A stretch of 58,644 nt of DNA. Source: a virus. Its lineage: Duplodnaviria; Caudoviricetes. The stretch is from the IMG/VR virus record IMGVR_UViG_3300006917_000003, positions 1 through 58,644 of that record. The stretch is one strand, 5' to 3'. Position numbers and translations under genes: made by a program. The notes under the pieces are model-generated. The model worked only from the letters and a program-made list of their open reading frames with translations. It made no database searches and was not told the origin of the DNA. This document shows positions 9,740 through 58,644 of the stretch, piece by piece (the stretch's first letter is position 1; every line of letters begins with the position of its first letter).

Positions 9740-9745
9740 GCGGCC

Positions 9746-14069: not shown

Positions 14070-14082
14070 GAAGGAGGACAAG

Positions 14083-14541: not shown

Positions 14542-14561
14542 AGCAAGTCGAGAGGGCCAAG

Positions 14562-14599
14562 GGCAGGGCAGCGCGGGGCGACCTCCGCGCTGCCCTGCT
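14562..14599 (+). terminator. Stem-loop after the SSB gene
   Basis: gcagggcagcgcgg...ccgcgctgccctgc inverted repeat. Confidence 0.45.
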
Positions 14600-14616
14600 C
14601 GCTGCGGAGGTGCGTC

Positions 14617-16455: not shown

Positions 16456-16501
16456 CCTTGCACGCCTGTCCGTGTATGATTGCGGGCAGGTGAGGTCGAG
16501 C

Positions 16502-21044: not shown

Positions 21045-21053
21045 GAGCGAGTC

Positions 21054-21863: not shown

Positions 21864-21871
21864 GAGAGAGC

Positions 21872-43461: not shown

Positions 43462-43644
43462 TCACTTCTTGGCGTACTTGTGGAAGCAGTAGCCAACCAG
43501 AAGGCCGAGCAGCAACACACCTACGATCGGGCCTGCGGGCAGGCGCTTGGGCGTGCGGAAGGAGTTGGGGTCGCGGTTGCTTCCAGCCAAAGCGTAGCCT
43601 TGGGTGGTGTAGCCGTAGCCGATCGGGGACTCTTGAACCATCAT
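43462..43644 (-). CDS. Small virion membrane protein
   Basis: C-terminal TM plus KK tail. Confidence 0.6.
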   Translation of the reverse strand: MMVQESPIGYGYTTQGYALAGSNRDPNSFRTPKRLPAGPIVGVLLLGLLVGYCFHKYAKK

Positions 43645-43657
43645 GGTGTGCCTTCCT

Positions 43658-43789
43658 CTAGCGCCGCTTGCGCGACTTGACGTTCAGGCCCTTGTACACA
43701 GCGTAGGCCAGTCCAGCAAGGACTACCACGCCAGCCACGGTCAGGCCGACGTTGCGGGTGGAGATGTATCCGTTGGTCGAGTGCATCAT
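43658..43789 (-). CDS. Small membrane protein (43 aa, not in the ORF track)
   Basis: MMHSTNGYISTRNVGLTVAGVVVLAGLAYAVYKGLNVKSRKRR. Confidence 0.6.
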   Translation of the reverse strand: MMHSTNGYISTRNVGLTVAGVVVLAGLAYAVYKGLNVKSRKRR

Positions 43790-43791
43790 GG

Positions 43792-44226
43792 TCAGTCCTT
43801 CTTGCGGAAGATGAAGTACAGCACTGCTGCCCCGCCCAGCAGCAGCGCGATGGTGGGGATGCCCCCAGACGGCGGGGCAGCAGCGGGCACAGTGGCAGGC
43901 ACCAGCTTGTCGAGAGTGACCTTGGTGACTCCCAACTTGAAAGACTCTGCCAAGTCGCTGGCAAGGTCGTCGATCGATTGGAGGCCACCACCAATGGCCT
44001 GCACCTTGTCGTTGGCTTGCCCAGCAGAGAAGGCGAAGAGCAGCCCACCAGCGACCATCTGCTTGTCTGGGATCTTGAACACGCCCGATGGCGTGTAGAG
44101 CGTCATCAGATACGGCCCGTTGAGGCGCGGTGCCAAAGCCTTGAACAGGTCAACAGTCGTCACCGTCTGCTGGGCAGTCGGATCGACCACATAGGGCTTG
44201 CCTTCGATCACAATCGCTTCAGCCAC
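43792..44226 (-). CDS. Virion membrane protein
   Basis: C-terminal IALLLGGAAVLYFIF-RKKD; GGGGAG RBS. Confidence 0.72.
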   Translation of the reverse strand: MAEAIVIEGKPYVVDPTAQQTVTTVDLFKALAPRLNGPYLMTLYTPSGVFKIPDKQMVAGGLLFAFSAGQANDKVQAIGGGLQSIDDLASDLAESFKLGVTKVTLDKLVPATVPAAAPPSGGIPTIALLLGGAAVLYFIFRKKD

Positions 44227-44229
44227 GGC

Positions 44230-44871
44230 TTACTCCCCCTTCTGGTTCAAGAGCCACAGCAGCCCGCCTGCGATAGCCAGAGCAGCCAAACCGCCGCCGC
44301 CCTCTTCCTTCTTCGGTGGCGGGGGTGGAGGCGTGGCGGCGGGTGTCTTTGCTGGTGCCGCCGTGCCGATCGCATTGAACGTGGCGTCGGTCACCTGCTT
44401 GTCTTCACCCTTGGACAAGGGCAGAAGATCGACAGGGTCTTGCGGGCCAGCGAAGAGGCGCGAGAAGCGGTCGCTCTTGTTGGCTTGCGTGATCAGTACG
44501 CCGTCCGCGCCCTCGTAGAACATCCACTGGTTGGGCGCAGTCGGGGCAGACTCGATGATCCAGTTGCCGTTCTTGCCCGGGATCTTGACCACGTCAGCGG
44601 CCTTGTCGTACCCCAGCAGGTCAGCAGCCTGCTTGATCGAAAGCTCGCCCTCGTAGATGCGAACTGGCGTGCCCTTCTTGAGCGTCTTGGGCTGACCCAC
44701 GGCGTTGGTCAACAGGTCGCTGACGTACTGAACGTCCACGTCAACGGGCAGGTAGCCGTTTCGCCACTTGAGCTTGCCCGACTTGGTCGCAAACTGCGGC
44801 GCAGGCTCCACTGGGGCACCCGCCAAGAAGTGTTCGTCTTCGCTATCGTCTCCGATGCCAAACATGCTCAC
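44230..44871 (-). CDS. Virion membrane protein, paralog of 44868..45482
   Basis: GKLKWRNG / KKGTPVRIY.G shared with its neighbour; Pro linker, GGGG and TM. Confidence 0.75.
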   Translation of the reverse strand: MSMFGIGDDSEDEHFLAGAPVEPAPQFATKSGKLKWRNGYLPVDVDVQYVSDLLTNAVGQPKTLKKGTPVRIYEGELSIKQAADLLGYDKAADVVKIPGKNGNWIIESAPTAPNQWMFYEGADGVLITQANKSDRFSRLFAGPQDPVDLLPLSKGEDKQVTDATFNAIGTAAPAKTPAATPPPPPPKKEEGGGGLAALAIAGGLLWLLNQKGE

Positions 44872-45482
44872 TCCTTGCTGCCAAACAGCGCCAGCGCCCC
44901 GATGCCCAAGAGCGCCAAGAGGCCGACGCCACCGCCGCCCTTGTCGCCCTTGTCGCCGTCTTTCGTACCCGAACTCTTGCGCTTGGGCTTGCCAGCAGCA
45001 TCGAGCACCGGGAACCCTTGGGCGTCGACCTCGTAGACGGCGGGGTCGAACATGCCCTGCGCGTTGGCCGCGTTGTCGGTGGTGCCAGCCTTGTCGATCG
45101 GCAGCAAGTCCTTGGGGGCGAGCTTGGCCGACAGCATCCGCTTGCGGATGGTGGGCAGAGCCGCCGCGTAAGCAGGCGAGGACATGAGCGCCTGCGCCTC
45201 TGGGGTGTCAGGGTAGGCTGCCCAGTAGCCGCCGCCCGCAAGCTCGACCAAGTACTGGTCGTTGGTGGGGCTTTGGATCGTAGCTTGATCCGTCCACGGG
45301 ATGGTGCCCACATACACGCGCACGATGGTGCCCTTCTTGATCACCGTGTCCGGCTCCGCGCCGCCCCAGTTGGGCAGCGTCTTGGCGGGCGTATCTTCAG
45401 CCACGACGCCGTTCGACCAGCCGAACTTGCCGACGTTGAACTTGGTGCCTGTCGTCGCTTCGCCGTTGCCTGCCAGCATCAT
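44868..45482 (-). CDS. Virion membrane protein
   Basis: Start revised (MMLAG); GKFGWSNG / KKGTIVRVY.G; C-terminal TM. Confidence 0.75.
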   Translation of the reverse strand: MMLAGNGEATTGTKFNVGKFGWSNGVVAEDTPAKTLPNWGGAEPDTVIKKGTIVRVYVGTIPWTDQATIQSPTNDQYLVELAGGGYWAAYPDTPEAQALMSSPAYAAALPTIRKRMLSAKLAPKDLLPIDKAGTTDNAANAQGMFDPAVYEVDAQGFPVLDAAGKPKRKSSGTKDGDKGDKGGGGVGLLALLGIGALALFGSKE

Positions 45483-45808
45483 CACACACCCCGCTTGGCC
45501 AAGCACCACGCCTCGACGGCGGGGATCGGCCCTGAGAACTTGGCCACCTGCTCACCTTGCGCTGCCCAGCCGCCGCCTTCTTTGGCGAAGGTACGCACAG
45601 GCCGCACGGTGGTATAGTACCCCGCATCTCCCTTGCCCACCAGCCCCCAAAAGTTGTGACCGAGGGCGTAGCGCCCCCAGCCAGACTTGGCGGCTGCCTC
45701 TGCCAAGCACTGCTTGGGGTCGAGGCCGTAGCGCGGGCACACGGTGGCCGCAGCGGGCACCAGCGCCCGCAGGAACGCCTCCTGCTGCTGGCGGGTGGGC
45801 TGGTTCAC
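45482..45808 (-). CDS. GH73/FlgJ-like glucosaminidase domain, short and possibly inactive
   Basis: FL..L.PAA....YGL.P...LAEAAAKSGWG...NFWGL; Lys where the catalytic Glu of ESGWG is expected. Confidence 0.6.
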   Translation of the reverse strand: MNQPTRQQQEAFLRALVPAAATVCPRYGLDPKQCLAEAAAKSGWGRYALGHNFWGLVGKGDAGYYTTVRPVRTFAKEGGGWAAQGEQVAKFSGPIPAVEAWCLAKRGV

Positions 45809-46656
45809 TTGCTGCCCTTCTTGAGCAGGGCAGGCCCAAAGGTGACCGCAGCGTAGATGACCGCGCCCCACAAGAGGTACTTGGTCAGTTCGCCAAAGGT
45901 GCCGCTGAACGACTTGGCGATGTTCTCTTCTGCGTCCTTCTTGAAGATCGGGGCCTTGGTGGCCAGCTTGGCGCTACCGCGCTCCCGCAGCAGCTTGATC
46001 AGCCGCGCAGGCGCACCAGCCTTTACCAACGCCTTGAAGGCGTCGTCGTACTGGTTGCCGTAGGAGTGGTCGCCACAGCCTTGCGGAGGGTCGGCCTCCA
46101 GCACGGGGGCCGTCCACCACTTCTTGACCGACGAACCAAAGCCGAGGTCATCCTCAGACGGCGTGCCGTTGAGCCAGTGGTTGATCGTGCAACGCTCCCA
46201 GCCCTTGGGGTCGAGGTAGTAGTCCACCTCCACCATCGTGGCCAGAATCATGGGGCCGTCCAAGGCCATGGGCAAGTCAGTGCCTTGAGCGCGGCTTTGG
46301 CCTGCGTACTCAGGCGACTGCGCCTTGGCCCGCGCCTCTGCCCACTGCTGCTCCAGCACTTCGGCGCGGCCCTCTGGGGTCGTGCCCTCTGGGGGGTTTA
46401 CTGCACCAGCCTGCACGCCAGCCAGCGACCCGCTCAGGGGCACAGCCCGTGACACCAAAGGTGCCATGCTGGGCGTCTGCGCGGCTTCGCGCAGGTAGTA
46501 GGGCTGCTCGCCCACCGTGGGGTTCAGCGGGGCAAGACGGGGCAGGACGACGGCGCGGTTGGCGTAGGTCGAGTGCGGGGTGGTGTAGCTGCGGTAGTTG
46601 TACGGGTCGCCGCACTCGCAGCCGCTCAGGGCGTAGGGGTCGTCGTGCAGCATCAT
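45805..46656 (-). CDS. Virion membrane protein
   Basis: C-terminal YLLWGAVIYAAVTFG TM. Confidence 0.72.
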   Translation of the reverse strand: MMLHDDPYALSGCECGDPYNYRSYTTPHSTYANRAVVLPRLAPLNPTVGEQPYYLREAAQTPSMAPLVSRAVPLSGSLAGVQAGAVNPPEGTTPEGRAEVLEQQWAEARAKAQSPEYAGQSRAQGTDLPMALDGPMILATMVEVDYYLDPKGWERCTINHWLNGTPSEDDLGFGSSVKKWWTAPVLEADPPQGCGDHSYGNQYDDAFKALVKAGAPARLIKLLRERGSAKLATKAPIFKKDAEENIAKSFSGTFGELTKYLLWGAVIYAAVTFGPALLKKGSK

Positions 46657-46665
46657 GGTGGCACC

Positions 46666-47043
46666 TTACTTGCGGGAGCCAAAGTAGTAGCCCACCGCCA
46701 GACCTACCACGAACAGTGGGATCGAGATCGTCATCACCGACTTCTGGACGCTGCCCTTGACCGTCTCGATCGTCTCTTGGCCCTTGGGCGAGGCGACGAA
46801 CTTCTGGCCGGTCTTGCTCAGTACGTCGGAGAAGAACTCCGTGCGATCCGCACGCTCCTTCGATCCGGCAGGGCCACCTTGGATGGTCTTGTTGATCGCC
46901 TCTGCAAGGGCGTTGGCGATCGGGTCGCCGCCCAGCGGGTCACCCGGGCCAGCCAAGTTGCCCGCCATGTAGCCACGCGGGAAGTTGGTGCGCGGAGGGG
47001 CTTGGGCAGGCCCAAGGATCTCGACGTAGTCAGGCTGGATCAT
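46666..47043 (-). CDS. Virion membrane protein
   Basis: C-terminal ISIPLFVVGLAVGYYF-GSRK. Confidence 0.72.
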   Translation of the reverse strand: MIQPDYVEILGPAQAPPRTNFPRGYMAGNLAGPGDPLGGDPIANALAEAINKTIQGGPAGSKERADRTEFFSDVLSKTGQKFVASPKGQETIETVKGSVQKSVMTISIPLFVVGLAVGYYFGSRK

Positions 47044-47993
47044 CGCTTCTCCCCTTGCATGACGTAGCCGACGAACGCGGCAGGGTCAGTGATGTGCGGC
47101 ATGTGGCGGCGAACGTAGCGCATCTTCTTGCGGAAGGTGTCAGCGCCGGCCCTGTGCATGGTCTGGATCAGGTGTCGCTTACCCGCCTTGGTCAGGCCGG
47201 GGTTCTGCTTGGCCGACTCACGCTTCTTGCTGTACTCGTCAGCCGCCTGCTTGGCCTTCTCTGCCGCGTGCTTGGCACCCGCGCCGGCTGCGCGAGCCAG
47301 CGAGTGGACGCTCGCCCGCACCGTCTCCGACCGCCCATAAGCGTAAGCGCCGCCGGCCAAGAGCGCGGTGGTGAGCCACGTCGGGTTGCGCTTGGGGTTG
47401 CGACGATAGGGCGCTGACACCGACGTGTAGCCCAGCCGCTTGTTGGCCGACACCTTGTCGGCCCACTCCTTGGCACCCTCGTAGGTGGCAAACTTCAACT
47501 CGCCAGTGTAGTCGCCGGAAAGCCACCTAGTCGTCTTGCCAAGGTCTTGGACGTATGTGACCGCCCACGGGTAGATACGCTTCATCGCTTCATCGTATTC
47601 GTCGTAGTCGGGGTTGCGGTGCTTGGCATCGCGCTTCTCGACCAAGTGCGCCACCGGCAGGCCCACGGCCTCGCGGCGCTCGATCTCGCGCTCCAGCGAG
47701 CGGCCGGGGTTCTTGCGGGTCTTGAGGGCGTACACCTTGCGAACTCGGCTCTCGATCTCTGGCCAGCGCGAGGCAGCCACGCCCAAGTCGGCGGTCCGGC
47801 CAAGGTACACGCTATCGGTGGAGTCGCCCACCCTGCCGGGATGCGGCAGGAACACATACCAGCCGCGATCGTCGCCGTGCCGGCTGTCGTTGCCGATGTA
47901 GCCAAAGGTGATGCCGGGGAGTTCCTTGGACAGGTGCCCGATGGCGTCACTCAGCGAGGCGAGCGACGAGGGGTTGCGCTTGTACTTGGACAT
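47040..47993 (-). CDS. Basic multi-module protein with six NP motifs
   Basis: KRNP, RKNP, HRNP, RRNP, KRNP, KQNP; GAGGA RBS. Confidence 0.78.
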   Translation of the reverse strand: MSKYKRNPSSLASLSDAIGHLSKELPGITFGYIGNDSRHGDDRGWYVFLPHPGRVGDSTDSVYLGRTADLGVAASRWPEIESRVRKVYALKTRKNPGRSLEREIERREAVGLPVAHLVEKRDAKHRNPDYDEYDEAMKRIYPWAVTYVQDLGKTTRWLSGDYTGELKFATYEGAKEWADKVSANKRLGYTSVSAPYRRNPKRNPTWLTTALLAGGAYAYGRSETVRASVHSLARAAGAGAKHAAEKAKQAADEYSKKRESAKQNPGLTKAGKRHLIQTMHRAGADTFRKKMRYVRRHMPHITDPAAFVGYVMQGEKR

Positions 47994-48012
47994 GGTCTTC
48001 CTCGCTGTCGGC

Positions 48013-49623
48013 TCAGTAGTCGTTCGCCTCGTAGCTCATGTATCTGGGCTTGAATCCCGCCTTGAGCGCAGCGAGATACTCCTTGAGCGTCTTGCCGTGG
48101 GCCTTGGCTTCCAGTTGGAAGGCCACCAACCCGGGATCAGGAGGCGATGCAGTGATCCAATCTGGCTTGTCTGCTGGCTTCAAGGTGAAGCGGGTGGCGT
48201 CCTTGCCACCATAGGAGCCTCCCCGACCGACCTTGTCTGCCTTGGTGCGCGCCGTAAGCTCGTTGACCGGCTTGTCAAACTCCAGCCAATTATCATCCCA
48301 GCCAAGGTAATCGCTTACTTTCCAACTACTAGCCTTGCCAAGATCTCGTTTGGGCGGCACCTTGGCCTCTCCACCAAAGGAGAAGCCGTAAGCCAGCGGG
48401 GGGTTCTTGCGCTTGCGGGACTTGGTGTACCCAACGTGGGCGTGAAGGGGCAACTGCCAGCGGTGCTTGGCGAGCTTGACGGCGCAGGAGGTGACGGCAC
48501 GGGCCGGCGGCGGGGGAACGTGCCACCGCTTGCCGATCAGGATGGTGCCGCACTCGCTGACCGACCGCGACGGCTCGGCGTCGAACAGCGACTCCTGCCG
48601 CTTGGACGCCTTCTTCTTGCCGTTGCGCTGCAAGCCGCCCATGGCGCGGTGCCACGCGGGGGTCATTTCGCCGCTGGGGGCGACAAACGGGATCTGCACC
48701 GACGTGTCCCAGCCGTCTTTGCTGCTGAACTGGATGGTGTGGTCACCCACTTTCGTCACCGTGTACTTGCCGACCTTGGAGCCGACACGCAGCGGCTTGG
48801 TGTCCATGGCGTGTGCAAGCACAGCCTCTTGAAGCGTGGCGGGGTTGCGCTGGAAGCCCACCATGCTCGCGCTGGGGTTCTTGCTGGTGGCATAGTGCCG
48901 CTTCACCCACGCGGACACCGCTGCCTTGGCGGCGGCCTTCGTCGCGTGTTTGTGTGAGTCAACCGTCTCCCAAGGCGTCCAAACGCCAGACACCGCCTCG
49001 CAGCGATCAGCATGGTAGCTACCGCCCTCTCGGATGATGCGTGCCGCACCCAAGATCCCGCCTTTGCCGCGCTCGATGTAGGCGACCTCAATGCTCGCAG
49101 GAGCACCAGCCGGCGTGTGCCACTTCGTCAACTTGACGCTTGCGGGGTTGCGCTGGAAGCCCACCATGTGCGCGGTGGGGTTCTTGGCGATCCAGTTGCG
49201 CGGGGCCTCCTTGAGGACGGCCCGAATCACCACGTCGCCGGTCTTGCCGCCGGTTTCGCGCAGGTGGATCTTGTCGCCCGACCACCGTGCGATGCCGCTG
49301 CCGCCCATGTAGTTGCCGCTCAGGGTGTCGCCGTCGCTGGTCAGCAGCTTGCTGCTCGCCGCACGGTGCTCGGTGAACGCACGAATGACCGCCTTGTCGG
49401 TCTTGGTCAGGCTCGGGTTGCGCTGGAAGCCCACCATGCTCGCGCTGGGGTTCTGCGTCGTGTAGCGCATCGAGGCCATCGCCACGATCTTGCCGCTCTT
49501 GCCAGCCTCGGCCTTGGCCTCCTTGAGCGTCGTGCAGTAGCACTTGCGAGCGCCCGTGGGCGACAGGACGAGGAACTTGAACCCGTCGCGGGCGGCTTTC
49601 TTGTCGGCAGAAGTCAGGTGCAT
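48013..49623 (-). CDS. Multi-module protein with repeated NPxAxMVGFQRNP linkers
   Basis: Three linker copies plus RKNP separate unrelated segments; AAGGAG RBS. Confidence 0.8.
   Translation of the reverse strand: MHLTSADKKAARDGFKFLVLSPTGARKCYCTTLKEAKAEAGKSGKIVAMASMRYTTQNPSASMVGFQRNPSLTKTDKAVIRAFTEHRAASSKLLTSDGDTLSGNYMGGSGIARWSGDKIHLRETGGKTGDVVIRAVLKEAPRNWIAKNPTAHMVGFQRNPASVKLTKWHTPAGAPASIEVAYIERGKGGILGAARIIREGGSYHADRCEAVSGVWTPWETVDSHKHATKAAAKAAVSAWVKRHYATSKNPSASMVGFQRNPATLQEAVLAHAMDTKPLRVGSKVGKYTVTKVGDHTIQFSSKDGWDTSVQIPFVAPSGEMTPAWHRAMGGLQRNGKKKASKRQESLFDAEPSRSVSECGTILIGKRWHVPPPPARAVTSCAVKLAKHRWQLPLHAHVGYTKSRKRKNPPLAYGFSFGGEAKVPPKRDLGKASSWKVSDYLGWDDNWLEFDKPVNELTARTKADKVGRGGSYGGKDATRFTLKPADKPDWITASPPDPGLVAFQLEAKAHGKTLKEYLAALKAGFKPRYMSYEANDY
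48842..49452 (-). repeat. Three 38-bp direct repeats (48842-48879, 49145-49182, 49415-49452) encoding the linker
   Basis: gggttgcgctggaagcccaccatg(ct/tg)cgcg(c/g)tggggtt; the outer two copies are identical. Confidence 0.92.
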
Positions 49624-49679: not shown

Positions 49680-50066
49680 TCACTGGTGCAGGTGCTTGGG
49701 TCGAGGTGCGCGGCCCCGGTCGAGGTTCTGCACGTCGCGCTCGTCGTACAGGATGGGTTGGCCCAGCGCCTCAAACGCCAGCCGGTCGGCCCGCCGCTCC
49801 GCGCCACGGCGGTCAGAGTGCTCGTCGGCGGCGTGGCCAAGCTCATGCGCCAAGATGCCCGCCACGCGGCCTTCGGGCTGCTCTAGCAGCCGCTCGACAA
49901 CGTACACGGTGCGCTCGTCGGGGATGTACCAGCCAAAGTCGCGGTAGCCGCTGCGGGGCAGGTAGTGGCGATCCACCACCACCAGCCGCACGTCGCCCAC
50001 CGGGAACCGCTGTGCGAAGCGTTTCCGCAGGCGCAGGAACAGCCTGTGCGCCCCGGCCCGGGTCAT
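49680..50066 (-). CDS. Small zinc metallopeptidase-like protein (HExxH)
   Basis: ILAHELGH...AERRAD; start revised. Confidence 0.65.
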   Translation of the reverse strand: MTRAGAHRLFLRLRKRFAQRFPVGDVRLVVVDRHYLPRSGYRDFGWYIPDERTVYVVERLLEQPEGRVAGILAHELGHAADEHSDRRGAERRADRLAFEALGQPILYDERDVQNLDRGRAPRPKHLHQ

Positions 50067-50068
50067 GG

Positions 50069-50512
50069 TCAGTCCCGCAGAGCGAAGAACGCGGCAGCGG
50101 CGATGCCCACAGGCAACAGCCAGCCCATGCCGCCCTTGTCCTTGCCAGCGACGTAGTTGTCCAGCGCCTTCTTGACCGCATCGCGGAACGCCGTGGCGCT
50201 CTCGACCGTCCAAGCCGCGCCCATGGCAGTGGCCTTCTGGGTGTCGTAGTCGGCCTGCTTCAGCGCACCCGCAGTGATCAGCGTGGCAGCGTAGCCGTCA
50301 GCTTCCGCGATGATAGCGGGGATCGGATCGTAGAAGGTGGGCTTGATCCCAAACTTCACTTGCGCTTCTGACTGCGAGACGGTCTGCTTCTCGGGGGTCT
50401 TGAACTCGATCTCCTTCTGGATCTCAAGGGCCGACTTCTCGCTCGTCTTCTTCGGAGGAGCGCCCGCCAAAGCGTGGCTGTAGGAACCGTAGTTGTCACC
50501 TTCAAGCATCAT
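50069..50512 (-). CDS. Virion membrane protein
   Basis: Start MMLEG; C-terminal WLLPVGIAAAAFFAL. Confidence 0.72.
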   Translation of the reverse strand: MMLEGDNYGSYSHALAGAPPKKTSEKSALEIQKEIEFKTPEKQTVSQSEAQVKFGIKPTFYDPIPAIIAEADGYAATLITAGALKQADYDTQKATAMGAAWTVESATAFRDAVKKALDNYVAGKDKGGMGWLLPVGIAAAAFFALRD

Positions 50513-50520: not shown

Positions 50521-53448
50521 TCACTTCTTGCTCTGGGAGTATGCCACAGCGCCGCCAAGGAGCAACCACAACCACGGGAAAGGCTTCTTTTCTTCTTCGG
50601 AGATAACGAGCTTTGTCGCCACCTCTTCGTTCTTCTTGATCGTCTCCGATACAGCGGGAGGGATTGGCAGATTGTAGTCTTGGCCCAGCGCCTGCAATGC
50701 TTCGCCGGATCCAGCAACGTAGTCAAGGGCGTTTTCCACCTGCTCCTTGGTCTTGTCGTTCTGCTCCTTGGTCTCCTCGGCCTTCGCTTTCTCCTTGTCG
50801 GGCATGAGCGGGACGACGACGATCGTGCCGCCGCCAAGGTTGAGGCTGATCTTGTCGTCCTTGTGCTTGCGAGCCTCCCCCAAAGCCTTGCTCGACAGGT
50901 CCAAGTTCGACAGCACACCGCCCTTGTCGGTGGTGTTGTCTAGCAGACGGTTGCGCCGCGCACCGCGCAGACTGGCAAGCGCCGCCATCTTGGCCTGCAA
51001 TTCGCTAATCTTTGCCGACACGGCGTTGAGTGCGGCAATCGCCGTCTGGTCGCCCGCGTCGACTCGCTCCTTGAGCTTGGCGTACTCCACCAGCAGTTCG
51101 TTGAGCTTGTAGGCCAGCGAACCCTTCTTGGGATTCTTGGCGCACTCGGTCATGGTCTGCTTGTAATAATCGAGCTTGGCTTGCGGGTCGGTCAGCGTCT
51201 TGGGCGGGTCGGGGATGCTGCACCCGTACAGTTCGATTGCCATGTCGTTGAGCGCCACGATCATGTCCTCGGACAAGTCTTGAGACTCGCTTGCCAACTG
51301 CGAGGCCATCATGCCCAAGAGCAGTTGAGACTTGACCTCGCTCCGCGCATCAACATACGCCTTCTGCGGCTCGGTCAGTCCAGCCGTCTGAGCCTTGGCC
51401 TCTTCGGTAGCCTGCTTGTGCAGTTCCATCACCTTGTCGGCCACCAGCTTGAAGCCAAGCGGTATCGGCATGGGTTTGCTCTTGTCAGGCTGCCACGCAT
51501 AGAGCTTGGCCACGTTGCCACTCAGCTTGCTTGCGCGGGGTGGGGTGAACACTTTACCTGCAAAGAAGTCGGCCTTTTCGCTAATGGTAACAGCCATCTC
51601 TAGCTGCTTCTTGGTGTAGGTGGGGACAACGATGCTCTCGACCGGCCACGCGCCCATCATCTCCAGCAGCTTGTCTGGGTCTAGCTTCTCGCTGCCAAGG
51701 CAGTCCTTGTTGATCTGGGCAACACGGGATTGGAAGTTGGCGTAAGCAGTGGTGCCTTTGACTTCGGAGTACCACTTGTTCACCAGCAGCGTCAGCTTGG
51801 GTGCTACATCGGTGATCACCTTGCCTGACGGGGTCGTGTACGGTTCGTAGGTCCAGCCGACCTCCATCGGGGGCAAGAAGCAGACGAACTCAATCGCTGC
51901 CACCAGCATATCCCGGGCAGTCTTGACCTTGGCCCACGGGCCACCCTCTTCCTTGACGATGGGGTAGGTTGGCTTGTTGGGGTCGGTGTTGTCCTTCTTG
52001 GCGTAGAGAGAGGCTTGCATCAGCGTGAGGCGTTTGGCGTCTTGTGCAATGCGAATCAAAGGCAGAATAATGTCGGCCACTTGGTGAGGCGTTTTGGCAA
52101 CGCCGCCATACTCGCTTGACCACTCGGGATCTTCAGACAGGCCCTTCCAGATGAACATACCCAGCGTCTTTTCGGAGTACAAGCGATTGGTCTCGTCCTC
52201 GAACGGCGGGTGGAAAGCGGGTGGGCAAGCCCCCTTCTCTGGGCAGACCGGGATCTTGGCTCCCGGCTGCTTGGTCTTGAAGGCGTCCACGAACGGCTTC
52301 CCGCCGATACGATCCCACTGGTGGTGCAAGAAGTCGGCCAGAGCAATCGACGGCTCGATGTACTCGGCGTTTGCGCTCGCGGCCAGCTTCTCGTAGCCGA
52401 TCGATGCGACCGGCACAGACAGCCCGGGGAGCGTCTCGCCCCACTTGTCAGCCGGCACGTCCCAGCCAGAGCCTTGCACAGCTGAAAGCGTACCAGAGAA
52501 GAGAGGGTTGGTGGTCACGACCACGTTGGCGTCGCTGCCCTTGTAGGCGTACAGCGAGTGCAGCTTATAGTCGGCCAAGCCCGGGACGCTTGCACCGTAA
52601 ACTAGCGCCTGCTTGTTGCCGCTAGGGTTGTACTGCAAGTAGGGCATGTAGAGATCGGCAATCGGGAACTCCAGCGAGTCCACGCTCACCATCTTCTTGG
52701 CGTCTTGATCGTACTGCTGAATCGTGATCGGCTTTGCGACCTTGGGGTCGCATGCGACAGGGCCAAGCCACTGCACAGCGTTGATCTTGCTGAACGCCTC
52801 CGACAGCAGGAAGCCGATCCCGCCAGCTTCGCCAGCAACGGTCACCTGCGCCTTCATGTACTCAACTTCAGCCGCCTTCGCGTTCTTGACCAGCGTAGGG
52901 ATGCTCGATACCACGTTGCGCCAAGTGTCGCCAGTCAGCGACCCCTTGGGCGGGAGCCACGACAGCGTCTGGTCCACCAGCTTCTGAACCTGCGCTTGGG
53001 TGCCGTTCGGCCCCGGGTAGTCTTGCCAGTTGCAAGCCAGCGCGTAGACGAGGTTGAGAAGTTCCCAGCACCGCAAGCGGGTCTGGAACGCCAGCAGGTC
53101 AAACGCCCGCTTGTCGGCGGCTTCAGACACGATGCCGTAGAGGTCAACGCCCGGGGCTTGGCCGCTCTTCTGCGTCAACGGATTGAAGGGTGCAAGGTAC
53201 TTGGCCAGCGACACTGCCGACAGTGCCTGCATGGCCTTGGGCGAAAGCACGGCTGCCAGCTTGGCTGCATCCTCGGGCTTCAAGCCAGTCGGCAGGGCGT
53301 CGGGTGTCGAAAGGATCTCCTTGCCACCGATCGGCAAGTAGGTGTCGTACACGTCCTTGACGACGCCGCCTGCGCCAGCACCTGCGTCTGCGCCCTTGCC
53401 CCCGGGGGGCAAGCCGTTCAAGTTCCCCTCGTTGTTGAACAGCAACAT
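50521..53448 (-). CDS. Large (975 aa) membrane-anchored virion protein
   Basis: AGGAG RBS; C-terminal coiled coil and KKPFPWLWLLLGGAVAY TM. Confidence 0.78.
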   Translation of the reverse strand: MLLFNNEGNLNGLPPGGKGADAGAGAGGVVKDVYDTYLPIGGKEILSTPDALPTGLKPEDAAKLAAVLSPKAMQALSAVSLAKYLAPFNPLTQKSGQAPGVDLYGIVSEAADKRAFDLLAFQTRLRCWELLNLVYALACNWQDYPGPNGTQAQVQKLVDQTLSWLPPKGSLTGDTWRNVVSSIPTLVKNAKAAEVEYMKAQVTVAGEAGGIGFLLSEAFSKINAVQWLGPVACDPKVAKPITIQQYDQDAKKMVSVDSLEFPIADLYMPYLQYNPSGNKQALVYGASVPGLADYKLHSLYAYKGSDANVVVTTNPLFSGTLSAVQGSGWDVPADKWGETLPGLSVPVASIGYEKLAASANAEYIEPSIALADFLHHQWDRIGGKPFVDAFKTKQPGAKIPVCPEKGACPPAFHPPFEDETNRLYSEKTLGMFIWKGLSEDPEWSSEYGGVAKTPHQVADIILPLIRIAQDAKRLTLMQASLYAKKDNTDPNKPTYPIVKEEGGPWAKVKTARDMLVAAIEFVCFLPPMEVGWTYEPYTTPSGKVITDVAPKLTLLVNKWYSEVKGTTAYANFQSRVAQINKDCLGSEKLDPDKLLEMMGAWPVESIVVPTYTKKQLEMAVTISEKADFFAGKVFTPPRASKLSGNVAKLYAWQPDKSKPMPIPLGFKLVADKVMELHKQATEEAKAQTAGLTEPQKAYVDARSEVKSQLLLGMMASQLASESQDLSEDMIVALNDMAIELYGCSIPDPPKTLTDPQAKLDYYKQTMTECAKNPKKGSLAYKLNELLVEYAKLKERVDAGDQTAIAALNAVSAKISELQAKMAALASLRGARRNRLLDNTTDKGGVLSNLDLSSKALGEARKHKDDKISLNLGGGTIVVVPLMPDKEKAKAEETKEQNDKTKEQVENALDYVAGSGEALQALGQDYNLPIPPAVSETIKKNEEVATKLVISEEEKKPFPWLWLLLGGAVAYSQSKK

Positions 53449-53456: not shown

Positions 53457-54113
53457 CTACCCAAGACCTTTGAAACCCTTGGCGACGTACTGCTTGTAGG
53501 CAGCTTCCATCTTGTCGTCGTACCCGCGCTGGCCCTTGCCGTTGTAGCCCCGGGCAAACGTTGTCCAGTCGCCCTTGCGGGCAGCGTCCTCCAGCCCCTT
53601 GTTCTGCACGAAGTCGAAGAAGCCACGGATCTGTGCCTCCTCGCTGGTCGAGTAGGCGTCAAACATGGCTTGCACGGTGGGGAACTTCACCAGCTTGTGG
53701 TTGAAGCCCATGATCTGGGCCGACCCCATGCTGATCGACTTCATTGCGGCCTCGCGGTCAAGAGCAGCGGCGCGGGCAAAGTTGTCCCACTCGGCCTTCT
53801 GGCCAGCACGCACAACGCCAACATCCTTGCCGCCTGAGTACTCGCGGAAGACGTGCGGCTCAAAGCGAATGATCATGCGACCGTCTTTGCCAAAGCCCTT
53901 GCCGCCAGACTCCACAGTGAAGATTGCCAGCGCCACGGCCTCGGGGATGCCCCGCTCGGCTGCCAACGCCCTGATCTGCTTGATCCGCTCTTCCTTGCTC
54001 AGGATCTCTGCGACCATCTCCTTGACCTGCTTGCCATAGGTGACCACCAGCAGCAGCGCCGCGCCACCCAGCGCCCACCACAACCATGGCTGGACTTCTG
54101 GATTGCGCTTCAT
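53457..54113 (-). CDS. N-acetylmuramidase (DUF3380-like) with N-terminal RNP and TM; likely virion-associated lysin
   Basis: VESGG.GF, IRFEPHVF, SMG..QIMGFNH, W..FARGYNG, YD.KM. Confidence 0.85.
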   Translation of the reverse strand: MKRNPEVQPWLWWALGGAALLLVVTYGKQVKEMVAEILSKEERIKQIRALAAERGIPEAVALAIFTVESGGKGFGKDGRMIIRFEPHVFREYSGGKDVGVVRAGQKAEWDNFARAAALDREAAMKSISMGSAQIMGFNHKLVKFPTVQAMFDAYSTSEEAQIRGFFDFVQNKGLEDAARKGDWTTFARGYNGKGQRGYDDKMEAAYKQYVAKGFKGLG

Positions 54114-54114: not shown

Positions 54115-54969
54115 CTACCGCCCGTGCAGCTTGGCGGCGGCGTCCTTCATGCTCAGACGCTCGCCGTCGATCACGGCGTAGCCCTTGGACAGCTTACGCA
54201 CGCGGTGGGAGCCAGCCTGCACCGTCTTGCCGATCGGCAGTCGGGAAAGCATCGAAGCGAAGATCTTCTCCTCTTCCTTCTCATGGGCGAGGTGGGATTT
54301 GGACATGCCGTTGCGCTTCTTGGGATTCAGCACAGCCGGGACGTAGCGCGGGTCGGGGTTGCGGCTCTTGTAGCCGATGGCTTCGTAGACCTGCGCTTTG
54401 GTCATGCCACCCTTGAGGTAGCTCTTCCAGCACGACTCGTAGTAGTCCCGCTTGATGTCGCCAGAGTAGCCACGGGACAGCTTGCTCTCCTGCTCGTTGA
54501 TCGCGGCCCGCACGACAGCCCGGTCTCCAGCGGACGGCTGGTTGAGCGGATTCTGGCTCATGTACCGTTCGGCTTCAAACTTGCTGACCACCCCGCGCCG
54601 TTGCAGGTACGCCAGCGCCGCATTGAATCGCTCTCGGGCGTAGGTGTCGCGCTTGAGGAAGTCCCGCATGGCCTCGCCTTGGCGGCGACTCTGGGAAAGG
54701 GTAGTCAGCGCGTTTCGCGCCTCCTGCAAGGCTACACGGGGATCTAGACGCTCAATACGCTCCCAAGAGTACTCGATGCCAGTCTTGGTAGGGTTGCGGC
54801 GCTTCTTGGGGCCGCAGTGCGGGTTGCCGCACGCGCCCGCGCAGCCGCAGCCGCCGTTGCGCTTCTTGGTCTTGCGGAACTTGAAGCCGCCTTCCACCTG
54901 TTTGACCTCCGCGATGGAGTCGCACTGGTAGGCTTGGCCGTTGGGGCTGTGGGCGATGAACTTGGCCAT
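54115..54969 (-). CDS. Basic multi-module protein with NP/NG motifs
   Basis: KRNG, RRNP, SQNP, SRNP, VLNP, KRNG. Confidence 0.75.
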   Translation of the reverse strand: MAKFIAHSPNGQAYQCDSIAEVKQVEGGFKFRKTKKRNGGCGCAGACGNPHCGPKKRRNPTKTGIEYSWERIERLDPRVALQEARNALTTLSQSRRQGEAMRDFLKRDTYARERFNAALAYLQRRGVVSKFEAERYMSQNPLNQPSAGDRAVVRAAINEQESKLSRGYSGDIKRDYYESCWKSYLKGGMTKAQVYEAIGYKSRNPDPRYVPAVLNPKKRNGMSKSHLAHEKEEEKIFASMLSRLPIGKTVQAGSHRVRKLSKGYAVIDGERLSMKDAAAKLHGR

Positions 54970-54978: not shown

Positions 54979-55971
54979 CTAGCTCGACTTCTTGTTGCTC
55001 GACAAGACCAGCAGCAGCACCACGCCGCCTGCGACGTAGGGCAGCACTGAGGCGGCATCGCTCTTCTTGTCGTCTCCAGACTTGCCCGCAGCGGCAGCGG
55101 TGCTGTTGCCCACCAGACCGCCCGACTTGACCTTGAACGCCTGCTCCAGCCACGCCTCTTCGCGCTTGGGGTTGGGGCCAACCATGGCGAGGTACTTGTC
55201 GATGGTGCCAGCAGGCACGGAACTGATCCGCTTGTTGCCGTCGACTGCACCAGCGAGCTTGATCGGCACCCCAAACACGTCCTTGTTCGTGCCCTTCTGC
55301 GGCACGATGCTGGGCATACGGGTGCCCACCATCTGGGCATAGCCTGCCGCTGCTGCGGCTTCGTAGGGCTTGGCCCCGGCTGCAACCGCCTTCTGGTAGA
55401 TGAAGTCAGCGAGGCGGCTGGTCACGTTGAGGTCAGCGCCCATGAGACTCAGCACCTTCTCCCACAGCCAGCCCAAGATGGTGTCGCGGCCTTGCTTGAG
55501 GTCTGTCGCTGGCGAGCCGGTCGGCTTCATGCGGTAGGCGACCGCCACCATGGCGTCCTTGAGTGCATCCATGAAGACGGTGCCCTTGGCGTCGTTCATG
55601 GCTGCCAACACGCTGTTGGCCTGCGCTTCAGGCAGGTAGGTGATCACGCCTTCTGCACTGGACTTGACCGTCCAGTTGGCCTGCTCAACGATCCATGCCG
55701 CCATGTCGGCCAGCACGTTGAGCACTTCGCCCAGACCGGGGAGGGCCTTGTCGAGGTACGGCTTGATCACCGTGCCGCCCTTGTCCACCAGCCCGCCGAT
55801 GATGCCAGCGCCAACGCTGCCCGGGATGAACGCCTGTGCGGCCTCCGTGCCCAGACCCTCCAGCGTCGGGGGGCCTTGGTGCGTCAGTTGCTGGGTGTTG
55901 CCCACATACGAACTGACCGGCATGGAGTGCTTGGGCGCTTGTGCTGGGTGCAAGCTGGGGACGATCATCAC
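54979..55971 (-). CDS. Virion membrane protein
   Basis: C-terminal VLPYVAGGVVLLLVL-SSNKK. Confidence 0.75.
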   Translation of the reverse strand: MMIVPSLHPAQAPKHSMPVSSYVGNTQQLTHQGPPTLEGLGTEAAQAFIPGSVGAGIIGGLVDKGGTVIKPYLDKALPGLGEVLNVLADMAAWIVEQANWTVKSSAEGVITYLPEAQANSVLAAMNDAKGTVFMDALKDAMVAVAYRMKPTGSPATDLKQGRDTILGWLWEKVLSLMGADLNVTSRLADFIYQKAVAAGAKPYEAAAAAGYAQMVGTRMPSIVPQKGTNKDVFGVPIKLAGAVDGNKRISSVPAGTIDKYLAMVGPNPKREEAWLEQAFKVKSGGLVGNSTAAAAGKSGDDKKSDAASVLPYVAGGVVLLLVLSSNKKSS

Positions 55972-56327
55972 ACACCTCCCGCCGCGAGGGCGGTCGCCTT
56001 GTAGTACTCCAACGTGTGTGGCTCTGTGTCCGCTGGTGGCCCCATCGAGAGTACCTTAGCACGCACCGTCTTGGCTACGGCTTCCAGATCTTCAACACGC
56101 ACCTTGCTGGCAATCTCCAGCACCCAGCCGATCGGCAGGCCCGCAGCCGCCGACACCATGGCCACCGTCTCGTACTTCTTCTGCTGCTCAGGGTCGACGG
56201 GGCGCGGCGGGGGCACTTGGTCTTTGGCGTAGGCCCGCAGCATGAGGTCTTGATACCAGTTGGGTCGCGTGGCCTTGAGCAACGCGAACCCAACCGCACC
56301 GATGATCAGCCACGTCCGCAGCTTCAC
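55968..56327 (-). CDS. Membrane protein (N-terminal TM)
   Basis: MKLRTWLIIGAVGFALLKA. Confidence 0.68.
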   Translation of the reverse strand: MKLRTWLIIGAVGFALLKATRPNWYQDLMLRAYAKDQVPPPRPVDPEQQKKYETVAMVSAAAGLPIGWVLEIASKVRVEDLEAVAKTVRAKVLSMGPPADTEPHTLEYYKATALAAGGV

Positions 56328-56699
56328 TTACGACCTCGCCGCAGTCCACAGCTTGACTTGGCCTGCGCCAGCCTCGCCGTTGGTCACCACCACGTCGTAG
56401 ACCTGCCCTATGCCGTTGTTGGTGCCCAAGCCGTAGCGCAGCACAGTCGGGGTGTTGGCTGGGATCGCTGCTGAGATCGGCACGGTCACTGCGATCGTCT
56501 TGCTGCGTGCGTAGAGCACCAGCGAGACGGATTGCAGCGCCACCGTGCAAGTCAGCATGACGGTGATCTGCGTGGCGTGCAGCGACGACACCTCTTCGAC
56601 CACCGTAGTAGCCTGCCCAATGCCAGCCGCAACAGCGAGCGGCCCCGACGCTTCGATCACAAGCGGCGTGCGGATGTCTTGCCCAAACGCGCCTGCCAT
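56328..56699 (-). CDS. Small all-beta virion protein (penton/vertex candidate)
   Basis: Start revised (MAGAFG); alternating beta-strand pattern; GGGAGG RBS. Confidence 0.6.
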   Translation of the reverse strand: MAGAFGQDIRTPLVIEASGPLAVAAGIGQATTVVEEVSSLHATQITVMLTCTVALQSVSLVLYARSKTIAVTVPISAAIPANTPTVLRYGLGTNNGIGQVYDVVVTNGEAGAGQVKLWTAARS

Positions 56700-56700
56700 C

Positions 56701-57195
56701 TTAGGCCTCCCTGTAGCCCAGCCGCTCGCCTTCCCACTCTTCGGGCCGGATGCGACCGTAGATCTGGGTGTAGACCAGCGCGTTCTGTGCGCTTGCGTCA
56801 AAGTTGACAATACGCAAGGACACTTCCGTCACGCCCGAGAGCGCCACCGAGAAGTTGAGCTTGCCTTGGAACAAGGTCAGCAGACCCGACACATCGCGCT
56901 CCAGCAAAGGGAAGCTGGAAGCACCATTGTCGTCCACATCCACACCCAGCACAGGGAAGGGTCGGATGCGGAGGAACGCCTGCATGCTGGCGAGGCCAGC
57001 AGAAGCGTTGTCGGGGCGGATCTGAAAGCTCACTTGAGCCTCGTCCGCGAACCGCGCAAACAGCGCCTTGCCACGCAGGGCCGTCTCGTATCCCTCCAGA
57101 CGCGGGCGCAGCACCATGGTCGAGACAATGGTGGAGCTTTCGCCGCCTGCGGGAAGCGTGAAGGTGGAGGCTTGCTCGTAGACCAGTGCCAGCAT
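56701..57195 (-). CDS. Beta-rich virion protein (minor capsid candidate)
   Basis: Start revised (MLALVY), TAATG coupling; ends in LRIVN...YTQIYG. Confidence 0.6.
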   Translation of the reverse strand: MLALVYEQASTFTLPAGGESSTIVSTMVLRPRLEGYETALRGKALFARFADEAQVSFQIRPDNASAGLASMQAFLRIRPFPVLGVDVDDNGASSFPLLERDVSGLLTLFQGKLNFSVALSGVTEVSLRIVNFDASAQNALVYTQIYGRIRPEEWEGERLGYREA

Positions 57196-57746
57196 TATGC
57201 CCCCGTGTTGAGGTAAGCGACCTTCCACGTCAGCGTGACGCTCACTGCCAGCGGGCCGGTGTTGGTCACCAGCAGCCGCCGCTTGAGCTTGTCGCGCCAC
57301 GTCTCAGGGGCGGGGAGGATCTGAGGCGACCAACCCACACCAAAGACGTTGCAGAGCGCCGAGTCTTGGATCTCAAGGAAACCCTCGACCAACTGCTGCC
57401 GCACCAGAATGTAGCCCCACGTCTGCGTAGGCAACTGCTGGGCGATGCCCGAGCCAAAGGCCAGCCCGGGGGTGGCGATCGCGTAGCGGCTGAACAGGAT
57501 GCCGTTACGACCACCAGTCAAGTCGAGTGCAACCTCTTCGGTGTTGGTCGGGTCGAACGGCGGAACGCCTGACCCTGCGGGCAGTTCGACCGTCACCGAT
57601 CGATCCTGCACCTGCACATAGCCCGCAGTGGGCCAGCGCGACGGATCATCGCAAGAGTCGGGGTTCGACTGCGGATCACCGTAGAGCCAGCCAGTGTACT
57701 GCTCACCCAGATCGAACTGCGCGAACGCAGGAGCTACCCAGCGCAT
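57195..57746 (-). CDS. Putative small capsid protein paralog 2 (183 aa)
   Basis: YT.W.Y.D.QSNP, NVFG.GWSP...PAPE.W, TN..., TWK.AYLNTG shared with 57766..58296. Confidence 0.72.
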   Translation of the reverse strand: MRWVAPAFAQFDLGEQYTGWLYGDPQSNPDSCDDPSRWPTAGYVQVQDRSVTVELPAGSGVPPFDPTNTEEVALDLTGGRNGILFSRYAIATPGLAFGSGIAQQLPTQTWGYILVRQQLVEGFLEIQDSALCNVFGVGWSPQILPAPETWRDKLKRRLLVTNTGPLAVSVTLTWKVAYLNTGA

Positions 57747-57765
57747 GGTCGCCTCCCTGAGCCAC

Positions 57766-58296
57766 TTAGCGGCCCGTGTTGAGGTAGGCGATCTTCCACG
57801 TCATGAACACGTTGACCGTGACGCCCGTGAGGTTGGTCACGGCGATGTTGCGCTGCTGGTTGCCCTGCCACCGCTCAGGAGCCGGGAAGCAGTGCGGCGA
57901 CCAGCCAAAGCCAAACACGTTGACGATCGGGGTCGACTCGATCTCCACCACACCATCCAGCCGAGTCTCGACCACGTTGACGTAGCCCGAGATCTGGTTG
58001 GGAAGCACCTTGGAGTTCGGAGTGTCTGCCGTCGTCGGGATCACAATGCACGTCCGCGTGTACACGATGACGTTCTTACCACCGCCGAGGTTCAACGACT
58101 GGGTCACCGTCGCGTTGTTAGCCACGCTGAAGAAGTTCAGCGAGCGATCAACAAACGTCACCTGCCCCGACACCGGCCACTTGTCCGGCTGGTCGTAGTA
58201 GGGGTTCGACTGCCGGTCGGCGTAGATCCAGCGGGTGTACGCATCCCCAAGGTTGGGGCCGTAGGGGGTGAACAGAGGGTCGATGTAGCCAGCCAT
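57766..58296 (-). CDS. Putative small capsid protein paralog 1 (176 aa)
   Basis: Start revised to ATG 58296 after AGGAG; beta-rich; follows the two large paralogs. Confidence 0.72.
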   Translation of the reverse strand: MAGYIDPLFTPYGPNLGDAYTRWIYADRQSNPYYDQPDKWPVSGQVTFVDRSLNFFSVANNATVTQSLNLGGGKNVIVYTRTCIVIPTTADTPNSKVLPNQISGYVNVVETRLDGVVEIESTPIVNVFGFGWSPHCFPAPERWQGNQQRNIAVTNLTGVTVNVFMTWKIAYLNTGR

Positions 58297-58320
58297 GGTT
58301 GACTTCTCCTGCAAACACGA

Positions 58321-58353
58321 GGGGGCGCGGTGCTTGTCGCGACCGCGCCCCCC
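58321..58353 (-). terminator. Hairpin after the large capsid genes
   Basis: gggggcgcggt...accgcgccccc. Confidence 0.5.
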
Positions 58354-58387
58354 CAGAGTACCCCAGATCGAGGCGCTTGACTACAGC

Positions 58388-58644
58388 TTAGACCGGCATG
58401 GTCAGCTTGTAGCCTTGGAAGGTCATGCGAACGGCGAGGAACTCAGCCGGGGACTGAGCGTTACCCGGGGCAATGCCCGGGACGGTGAACTCGCCACCGC
58501 TCTTGATCTTCACGCGGGTCACGATGTTGGGCAGGAACAGGAACGGGATCGGCAGCTTGCGCGAGTCGCACGCCAGCGGGAGGCCGTTCTGAACCGCGAT
58601 GCCCGTGTTAAGGCCGAAACCAACCGCAGTCGGCGGTTCCCACA
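58388..58644 (-). CDS. 3' part of the junction-spanning capsid paralog 2
   Basis: ...KLPIPFLFLPNIVTRVKIKSGG...VRMTFQGYKLTMPV*; 625+134 nt = 253 codons. Confidence 0.8.
   Translation of the reverse strand, partial: WEPPTAVGFGLNTGIAVQNGLPLACDSRKLPIPFLFLPNIVTRVKIKSGGEFTVPGIAPGNAQSPAEFLAVRMTFQGYKLTMPV
58522..58644. repeat. Terminal direct repeat copy 2
   Basis: Identical to 1-123. Confidence 0.97.

Follow-up and report, generated by a model that had tools for sequence, protein, structure and literature searches.

The 58,644-bp virus record IMGVR_UViG_3300006917_000003, which was analysed over its whole length and is called the window below, encodes side by side on its minus strand two pairs of paralogous proteins, a large pair (L1 and L2) and a small pair (S1 and S2), for which single jelly-roll folds are predicted. 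The module that contains them is conserved in related loci, and neither packaging nor tail genes were detected in the window by profile searches. We consider it probable that the record represents a tailless icosahedral virus of bacteria with an internal membrane, a shell formed by L1/L2 hetero-oligomers and DNA that is enclosed without a motor. The virus belongs to a coherent and apparently undescribed lineage without a cultured or annotated relative; no description of the group was found in the open-access literature searched (subscription journals and supplementary files were outside the scope of the search).

Two paralogous pairs at the circular junction

A 123-bp exact direct repeat is present at both termini of the window (64.1% GC), so that the unique sequence amounts to 58,521 bp. 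In IMG/VR the record is classed as carrying direct terminal repeats (DTR) with a completeness of 100%. The L2 gene spans the junction of the two ends: its N-terminal 208 codons are located at 1..625 (minus strand) and its C-terminal part at 58388..58644 (minus strand), these two parts overlapping by the 123-bp repeat. Joined in the circle (625..1 followed by 58521..58388) they encode a protein of 252 aa. The ends of the contig are not the physical ends of the molecule, because L2 is cut there and is intact in a relative as a 261-aa ortholog (L001:10716-11501). The assembled sequence represents a complete genome of circular or circularly permuted double-stranded DNA (dsDNA). No tRNA genes are present in the window.

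L1 (231 aa; 653..1348, minus strand; 653-1351, i.e. one codon more, was used in the analyses) is identical to the N-terminal part of L2 in 73 of 201 positions (36%, E 3e-35), and the C-terminal part of L2 matches L1 residues 169-230. S1 (176 aa; 57766..58296, minus strand) and S2 (183 aa; 57195..57746, minus strand) share 71 of 182 residues (39%, E 8e-43). The initial annotation of the region 56328-58644 had described four consecutive minus-strand genes across the junction as two paralog pairs of 231/252 and 176/183 aa, and both the pairing and the lengths agree with our results. The region itself comprises b6, b5, S2, S1 and the 3' end of L2, while L1 and most of L2 are found at 1-1348. In the order of transcription the minus strand encodes the coiled-coil protein g393, a transglutaminase-like protein, the acidic protein g256, a very basic protein (pI 11.6), L1, L2, S1, S2, b5 and b6. 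The same strand continues beyond b6, as far as ~43.4 kb, with genes for basic and for membrane-anchored proteins, for a muramidase, for g975 (975 aa) and for an HExxH peptidase.

A search for relatives, as suggested in the initial annotation, yielded 16 syntenic loci, namely one IMG/VR contig (L001), two contigs from metagenome-assembled genomes (MAGs) and 13 metagenome contigs. The record of L001 is a complete DTR genome of 58,052 bp (G001; the genome of the window is G000). It is collinear with the window across the structural and replication blocks; the two genomes differ in the small genes on the plus strand, in the gene for the fibre-like protein and in some of the enzymes. The order transglutaminase-like protein, g256, basic protein, L1, L2, S, b5 and the small membrane protein m119 is kept in the 16 loci wherever the contig reaches. 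Metagenomic homologs of L1 form 118 clusters, on contigs of up to 58 kb, and 70 relatives of S were found by a 14-sequence profile among 1.84 billion representatives. A tblastn search with L1 gave no match in 50,697 INPHARED phage records, nor in 72,556 PLSDB plasmids. In a search for forms of L1 of 406-2000 aa, which might be fusions, none of the 1,173 candidates scored; this is weak evidence by the rating of the tool itself.

The second L copy in tandem is a constant feature, being present in 14 of the 14 loci (out of 16) that could be assessed; L023 stops after L1 and L028 begins inside L2. In a midpoint-rooted tree the first and the second L copies are reciprocally monophyletic (support 0.77 and 1.0). 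Since the two sets of copies form separate clades, the tree places the L duplication before the origin of the group.

Predicted folds and contacts of L and S

No match to Pfam or PHROGs was obtained for L1, L2, S1, S2, b5 or b6, and hhalign gave probabilities <1% for L compared with S and for b5 compared with either of them. The folds were assigned using AlphaFold2 (AF2) models and Foldseek comparison. The L1 model, built with an alignment of 50 of the 118 metagenomic homologs, has a mean predicted local distance difference test score (pLDDT) of 77.3 and a predicted template modelling score (pTM) of 0.74, and it represents a single beta-sandwich with three long strands. The S2 model (73-sequence alignment) reaches a pLDDT of 92.3 and a pTM of 0.84 and consists of eight strands. 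With one member of each modelled, both families are predicted to be single jelly rolls. The jelly-roll-like fold suggested for these proteins in the initial annotation is in line with the two models, which have viral capsid proteins among their structural neighbours.

The first match of L1 in the PDB is the capsid chain 6oj0_A of Sulfolobus polyhedral virus 1 (SPV1), with E 1.0e-3, probability 1.00 and TM-scores of 0.38 and 0.48 when normalised by query (TMq) and target (TMt), respectively. It is followed by cricket paralysis virus (CrPV), porcine circovirus 2 (PCV2) and other circoviruses, satellite tobacco necrosis virus (STNV) and other satellite viruses, and PRD1 P5, with the furin P-domain interleaved between them. 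In BFVD L1 has 21 matches with E<=1e-3, mostly capsid proteins of CRESS-DNA viruses and circoviruses (TMq <=0.43). The viral PDB neighbours of S2 are circovirus, satellite tobacco mosaic virus (STMV), the major capsid proteins (MCPs) of Singapore grouper iridovirus (SGIV) and Paramecium bursaria chlorella virus 1 (PBCV-1), VP2 of infectious bursal disease virus (IBDV) and Haloarcula hispanica icosahedral virus 2 (HHIV-2); all PDB matches of S2, the cellular ones described below included, have TMq <=0.41. Judged from the models, the likeness of L1 and S2 to any particular capsid protein is generic. At the level of sequence the L profile has 0 matches among PDB sequences, and that of S just 4 chance matches (E 0.06-1.4).

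The modelling of heteromers, also suggested in the initial annotation, was carried out for S1 and S2, each of which was supplied as its own clade alignment. The two proteins are predicted to bind each other, with a median interaction score (ipSAE) of 0.80; the best of 3 controls had 0.00. In these runs the partner pLDDT was >=80 and at least 62% of the contacts were in common. The ipSAE mark is passed by 58 of 80 solved complexes and by 2 of 110 mismatched pairs, a calibration which is rough in this case since custom alignments were used. The predicted interface is asymmetric: S1 strands ~45-54, 79-86 and 164-170 are packed against S2 residues 105-149. It may correspond to the head-to-tail contact geometry that is expected for ring-forming subunits.

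Sandwich domains of cellular proteins (GOLD, CBM, MAM) score as high as capsid proteins in these comparisons. Together with the lack of a packaging motor and the very large number of membrane proteins, this would suit an enveloped or pleomorphic virus, or an element transferred in vesicles, that has no icosahedral shell and uses its jelly rolls as membrane-associated spikes, fusion or lectin-like proteins. However, L and S possess neither a signal peptide nor a transmembrane (TM)-like segment; both are compact acidic proteins that show strong conservation and occur in pairs. In addition, the neighbour lists of L1 are dominated by viral capsid proteins, and scaffold-like and protease genes are contained in the same module. 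A virus or element without a shell is very unlikely to be the source of these genes.

Packaging genes and comparison with known viruses

The genes for packaging and tail assembly were looked for with Pfam in 50 ORFs, among them all coding-like ORFs of 227 codons or more, and with PHROGs in 30 ORFs. No family of HK97-type capsid, portal, terminase, tail tube, tape measure or baseplate proteins was found in either set, and no FtsK/HerA packaging ATPase was present among the 50 ORFs scanned with Pfam. Six-frame searches of both complete genomes, G000 and G001, gave 0 matches to PF05065 and 0 matches to PF01580 (FtsK/HerA), the latter profile being positive in 14 of 14 control genomes. All proteins with a GK[ST] P-loop are accounted for as two SF2 helicases, a D5-like helicase and a zeta-toxin-like kinase. 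The initial annotation had seen no hallmark genes of tailed phages either, and had named an HK97 capsid, a portal or a terminase as finds that would speak against its reading; of these hallmarks of Caudoviricetes (HK97-fold capsid, portal and large terminase) 0 of 3 were recovered by the profile searches, very divergent versions being possible.

Two proteins were considered as parts of a split terminase and rejected. The 602-aa SF2-like P-loop protein is a DNA helicase according to PHROGs (E 2.9e-16) and the 477-aa PD-(D/E)XK protein is an exonuclease (E 2.6e-11); both are encoded in the replication block.

The same searches bear on the question whether the window is a tailed phage in which the capsid, portal, terminase and tail genes have diverged beyond detection and the jelly-roll paralogs are decoration, fibre or receptor-binding proteins. 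There are large unannotated ORFs (g975, g536 and g393) in which such genes could be sought, a fibre-like protein has repeats of tail-fibre type, and the Atlas neighbours of g393 are labelled Uroviricota, these being unnamed, scoring <0.9 and serving as leads only. Nevertheless, 0 of the 50 Pfam-scanned and 0 of the 30 PHROG-scanned ORFs match any of the six families listed above, every P-loop protein has been assigned as helicase or kinase, and most of g393 is disordered in its Atlas model (pLDDT 0.52). Tail-anchored membrane proteins moreover prevail in the block, an uncommon composition for the morphogenesis modules of tailed phages. A hidden tailed phage is unlikely on these grounds.

The initial annotation had placed the virus as a divergent relative of Halopanivirales. 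Seen in this way, L and S would be the duplicated large and small vertical single-jelly-roll proteins of P23-77 (Matsushitaviridae), SH1 and HHIV-2 (Sphaerolipoviridae) or SNJ1 (Simuloviridae), the members of Helvetiavirae. The resemblance concerns several points: two size classes of predicted single-jelly-roll proteins are encoded adjacently, as at least two such genes whose products form heteromers are in Helvetiavirae (PMC8812541), and an S1/S2 heteromer is predicted here. An internal membrane is shared as well, if that of the window virus is accepted, and many membrane proteins are encoded; P23-77 is a bacterial member. Capsid chains of HHIV-2 are found among the Foldseek matches of S2 at ranks 42 and 47 (E about 5e-3). 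In contrast, the FtsK/HerA ATPase, the defining feature of helvetiaviruses that they have in common with most double-jelly-roll viruses (PMC8812541), was found neither in G000 nor in G001. The L and S profiles match no PDB sequence, though the PDB holds capsid proteins of P23-77 and HHIV-2, and there is no profile match to VP16/VP17 (P23-77) or VP4/VP7 (SH1, HHIV-2). No similarity between L and S was seen in the profile-profile comparison, and neither P23-77 nor HHIV-2 is within the top 50 for L1. Finally, the genome is about twice that of the largest helvetiavirus, according to sizes given in abstracts (Simuloviridae 16-19 kb, Sphaerolipoviridae about 30 kb; 16-31 kb for Helvetiavirae as a whole). 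The unusual size noted in the initial annotation is confirmed by this comparison; the kinship is not, and membership in Helvetiavirae seems decidedly unlikely to us.

The tailless prokaryotic viruses PRD1, PM2, Bam35, FLiP (Flavobacterium-infecting, lipid-containing phage) and the autolykiviruses have an internal membrane and jelly-roll capsomers, as is proposed for the window virus, and FLiP likewise lacks the packaging ATPase; according to PMC8812541 it and SPV1 are the jelly-roll viruses known to be without this enzyme. The prokaryotic double-jelly-roll viruses carry both jelly rolls in a single MCP chain and have genomes of <20 kb (same source), whereas the L1 and S2 models contain one eight- or nine-strand sandwich each.

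The nearest analogy would be the ATPase-less SPV1 (Portogloboviridae), with the reservation that the membrane and shell of the window virus are read from its genes. In SPV1 a shell of single jelly rolls surrounds a membrane, inside which the circular dsDNA is wrapped by a nucleocapsid protein into a nucleoprotein core; its host is an archaeal hyperthermophile, its genome is 20 kb, its shell is built of one hexamer-forming MCP and a penton protein, and it encodes neither a polymerase nor other replication genes of its own (PMC8459092). Both viruses have circular dsDNA and no packaging ATPase. A gene for a protein of pI 11.6 lies beside L1 and may be compared with that of the DNA-wrapping protein of SPV1. 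The SPV1 capsid chain, of the VP4 single-jelly-roll type, is also the top PDB match of L1, though a weak one and without sequence similarity. The window virus differs from SPV1 in its size of 58.5 kb, its host (which we judge to be bacterial), its duplicated MCP candidates and its full replication module.

Several observations weigh against a tailless virus with an L1/L2 shell. The capsid role of L and S is deduced from sequence and predicted models. L1 residues 1-26 and 156-178 are modelled with low confidence, no PDB match of L1 is better than E 1e-3, the PDB matches with E<=1e-3 number 0 for L1 and 2 for S2, and the top query-normalised TM-scores are just 0.38-0.43. The PDB matches leading the list of S2 are cellular, namely GOLD domains (7rrm_A, E 4.6e-4, TMt 0.59) and Ena spore-appendage subunits. 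The absence of a packaging ATPase is a result of profile searches, and a divergent motor could hide in g975, g536 or g393. Tailed phages are otherwise the usual carriers of some features present here, namely the fibre-like protein (phrog_692), the endolysin families and the GP88 domain. Lastly, S is duplicated in only 5 of the 8 loci that could be assessed (L001, L002, L003, L019 and L020), so that "2+2" is not the basic plan. A single S is followed directly by b5 in L021 and L028, and L022 has one S and 0.9 kb that is unassigned.

The "2 large + 2 small" arrangement of the initial annotation holds for the window, where two pairs are present, and does not hold as a trait of the family. In the S tree the copies of the window, L001 and L003 form the sister clades S1 and S2, and the two copies of L002 are placed together elsewhere. 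Because the latter group apart, the S duplication would appear to be younger, recurrent or sometimes lost. As far as the loci indicate, the core set of the family comprises two L genes, an S gene in one or two copies, and b5.

Further genes and the proposed virion

The gene downstream of S2 encodes b5 (164 aa; 56701..57195, minus strand), which is conserved (orthologs in 9 of 16 loci) and may be a further beta-sandwich shell or vertex protein. Its Atlas model is of low confidence (pTM 0.49), with CBM_4_9 and MAM sandwiches as neighbours (TM 0.5-0.58). The two more beta-rich genes of the initial annotation are supported by this weakly, and for b5. The next gene, b6 (123 aa; 56328..56699, minus strand), is unrelated to b5 by sequence and has orthologs detected in L001 and L020 only.

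Strongly hydrophobic ORFs, i.e. those with a 19-residue Kyte-Doolittle window >=1.6, make up 13 of 72, and 9 of these 13 are located in the minus-strand structural block, mostly with C-terminal anchors. This agrees with the many membrane proteins mentioned in the initial annotation. The small conserved membrane protein m119 (55968..56327, minus strand) has a hydrophobic segment at residues 55-73 and 41-56% identity to its counterparts in 9 loci. It is followed by the C-terminally anchored g330 (54979..55971, minus strand; TM-like segment 304-326), which has an ortholog in G001. Five consecutive small genes (43462..47085, minus strand) each encode a hydrophobic C-terminal anchor, as judged from sequence and hydropathy. 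In all five the helix is followed by a short K/R-rich tail (…GSRK, …KKGSK, …GSKE, …RKKD, …YAKK), a uniform tail-anchor design.

Among the enzymes of the block is an N-acetylmuramidase with a hydrophobic N-terminus (53457..54113, minus strand; PF11860, E 7.4e-41; phrog_1224 endolysin, E 1.7e-48), which may act in lysis or entry. The HExxH (M48-like) peptidase (49680..50213, minus strand; PF01435, E 6.7e-5) is a candidate maturation protease. A transglutaminase-like protein of the cysteine-protease fold (3013..3687, minus strand) matches PF01841 with E 9e-4, under the curated cut-off, and is found in 6 loci. The very basic protein of pI 11.6 (1430..2116, minus strand), encoded directly upstream of L1 and conserved in 9 loci, is a candidate DNA-condensing or core protein. 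The acidic g256 (pI 4.2; 2196..2966, minus strand) is present in 11 loci, with 67% identity in G001, and is conserved as strongly as the jelly-roll proteins. The coiled-coil protein g393 (3689..4870, minus strand) is poorly structured in its Atlas model and is a candidate scaffold; its Atlas neighbours are uninformative. The large g975 (50521..53448, minus strand), which ends in a hydrophobic C-terminal tail, has no Pfam or PHROG match and is 27% identical over 906 aa to its counterpart in G001. On the opposite strand a fibre- or spike-like protein of 486 aa with the repeated motif ANRT.T.PD (41994..43454, plus strand; phrog_692 "virion structural protein", E 1.5e-4) is a candidate receptor-binding protein. 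It is not conserved in G001, as expected for a protein of this function.

Basic proteins rich in [RKQ]NP motifs are a further feature of the block. Such are g284 (54115..54969, minus strand), with three motifs in its sequence, and g536 and g317 (together 47040..49623, minus strand). In g536 (536 aa; 48013-49623, minus strand), which has no Pfam or PHROG family, there are three NPSASMVGFQRNP-like repeats of ~13 residues, [QK]NP[ST]A.MVGFQRNP, spaced by ~90-100 residues. The tripeptide [RK]-N-P is enriched about nine-fold in the window (29 against 3.2 expected; 23 against 3.9 in G001) and is often found within the first 15 residues (MKRNPE, MKQRNPA, MAGRRNP, SKYKRNP). It is concentrated in the basic proteins of the structural block, G001 carries it in the same gene families, and it is absent from L and S. 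The ORFs concerned are 1430-2116, 3689-4870, 19293-20129, 20130-21044, 21872-23656, 47040-47993, 48013-49623, 53457-54113 and 54115-54969. The signal is one at the protein level, because nearly all CGCAACCC octamers are in that frame and AAGAACCC variants are present. The motif could be a site of the maturation protease or a virion-targeting signal.

The replication block (4936..23656) encodes a ResIII helicase, a VRR-NUC protein, a D5-like primase-helicase, a PD-(D/E)XK exonuclease, an SF2 helicase, PolA, a GP88-domain protein, a CHAP protein, a zeta-toxin-like kinase, a GNAT protein and a topoisomerase IB. The family-A polymerase (PF00476, E 4e-32) has a 3'-5' exonuclease domain; with the D5-like primase-helicase and two SF2 helicases also found, the virus has a PolA replisome of its own, as the initial annotation had supposed. 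A tyrosine recombinase, which could serve integration or dimer resolution, and an M15 peptidase are also encoded (Pfam). Side by side at 20130-23656 (plus strand) are the genes of the kinase (PF06414, E 1e-32), the GNAT-domain protein and the topoisomerase, which is of the eukaryotic/poxvirus type (PF01028, E 8e-16). The kinase and the topoisomerase have N-terminal RNP motifs, and the latter is just partly conserved in G001. These may be packaged enzymes. Further along the plus strand (24658-39560), 19 genes are preceded by the shared ribosome-binding/start context AGGAGGTG(T/C)GAGATG, many of them also by a longer common purine-rich leader (…GGCGTGAGAGGGAGAGAGGAGACGGAAACCAAAC…). This looks like a repeated translation/transcription cassette in front of small, poorly conserved and presumably early genes, most of which have no counterpart in G001.

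The host is judged to be a bacterium from the muramidase, M15 and CHAP enzymes and from the strong Shine-Dalgarno sequence. PolA gives no clue to the host, its top phage match being an uncultured record with 27% identity. Relatives occur in two MAGs, as an Acidimicrobiaceae contig (L002) and a 52.4-kb Myxococcales contig (L003). Since these were binned to different phyla, MAG binning is unreliable for the host here; as the L003 contig has roughly the length of a complete viral genome, both contigs are probably mis-binned virus and no evidence of the host.

For a tailless virus with a jelly-roll shell the following scheme may be proposed. The virus would replicate with its own PolA, primase-helicase, helicases, nucleases and type IB topoisomerase. 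Its outer shell would consist of hetero-oligomeric capsomers of the universally paired L1 and L2 over a lipid membrane holding many virus-encoded tail-anchored proteins. S would form a second shell, a sub-capsomer or a vertex layer, as an S1+S2 heteromer in this virus and as one S protein only in some relatives; b5 would contribute to the shell or the vertices as well, and g393 would be the scaffold. Because genes for a terminase and for an FtsK/HerA ATPase were not detected, the DNA is probably condensed, putatively by the basic protein (1430..2116), and enclosed during assembly, as proposed for SPV1, and not pumped in. The TM-anchored muramidase, the M15 peptidase and the CHAP protein would act in entry into, or lysis of, a host with a peptidoglycan wall, and the 486-aa repeat protein would be the receptor-binding spike.

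Sampling of non-tailed phages that contain a membrane is very poor. A bolder proposal, which we put forward tentatively and regard as doubtful at present, is that the group is the first bacterial lineage of ATPase-less single-jelly-roll membrane viruses, with hetero-hexamers of ancient paralogs (L1/L2, and S1/S2 where both exist), and that it merits the rank of a family or higher. If true, pseudo-hexameric capsomers would be formed from separate jelly-roll chains with neither gene fusion nor a packaging motor. An ATPase-less lineage otherwise represented by the archaeal SPV1 only would here have grown to 58 kb and possess its own replisome. Its rank would then be that of a new family at the lowest, and perhaps of an order or class that lies beyond the kingdoms recognised today. 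Independently of this proposal, a coherent group of genomes of ~50-58 kb would extend the size range of the jelly-roll architecture, since the known prokaryotic jelly-roll dsDNA viruses are all small (<20 kb for double-jelly-roll viruses, up to ~31 kb for helvetiaviruses). Such viruses escape marker-gene methods based on terminase, HK97 or double-jelly-roll profiles. The group would also bear on the debate whether Helvetiavirae arose from a portoglobovirus-like ancestor (PMC8812541), and would provide a test case for jelly-roll shells that enclose large genomes without a motor.

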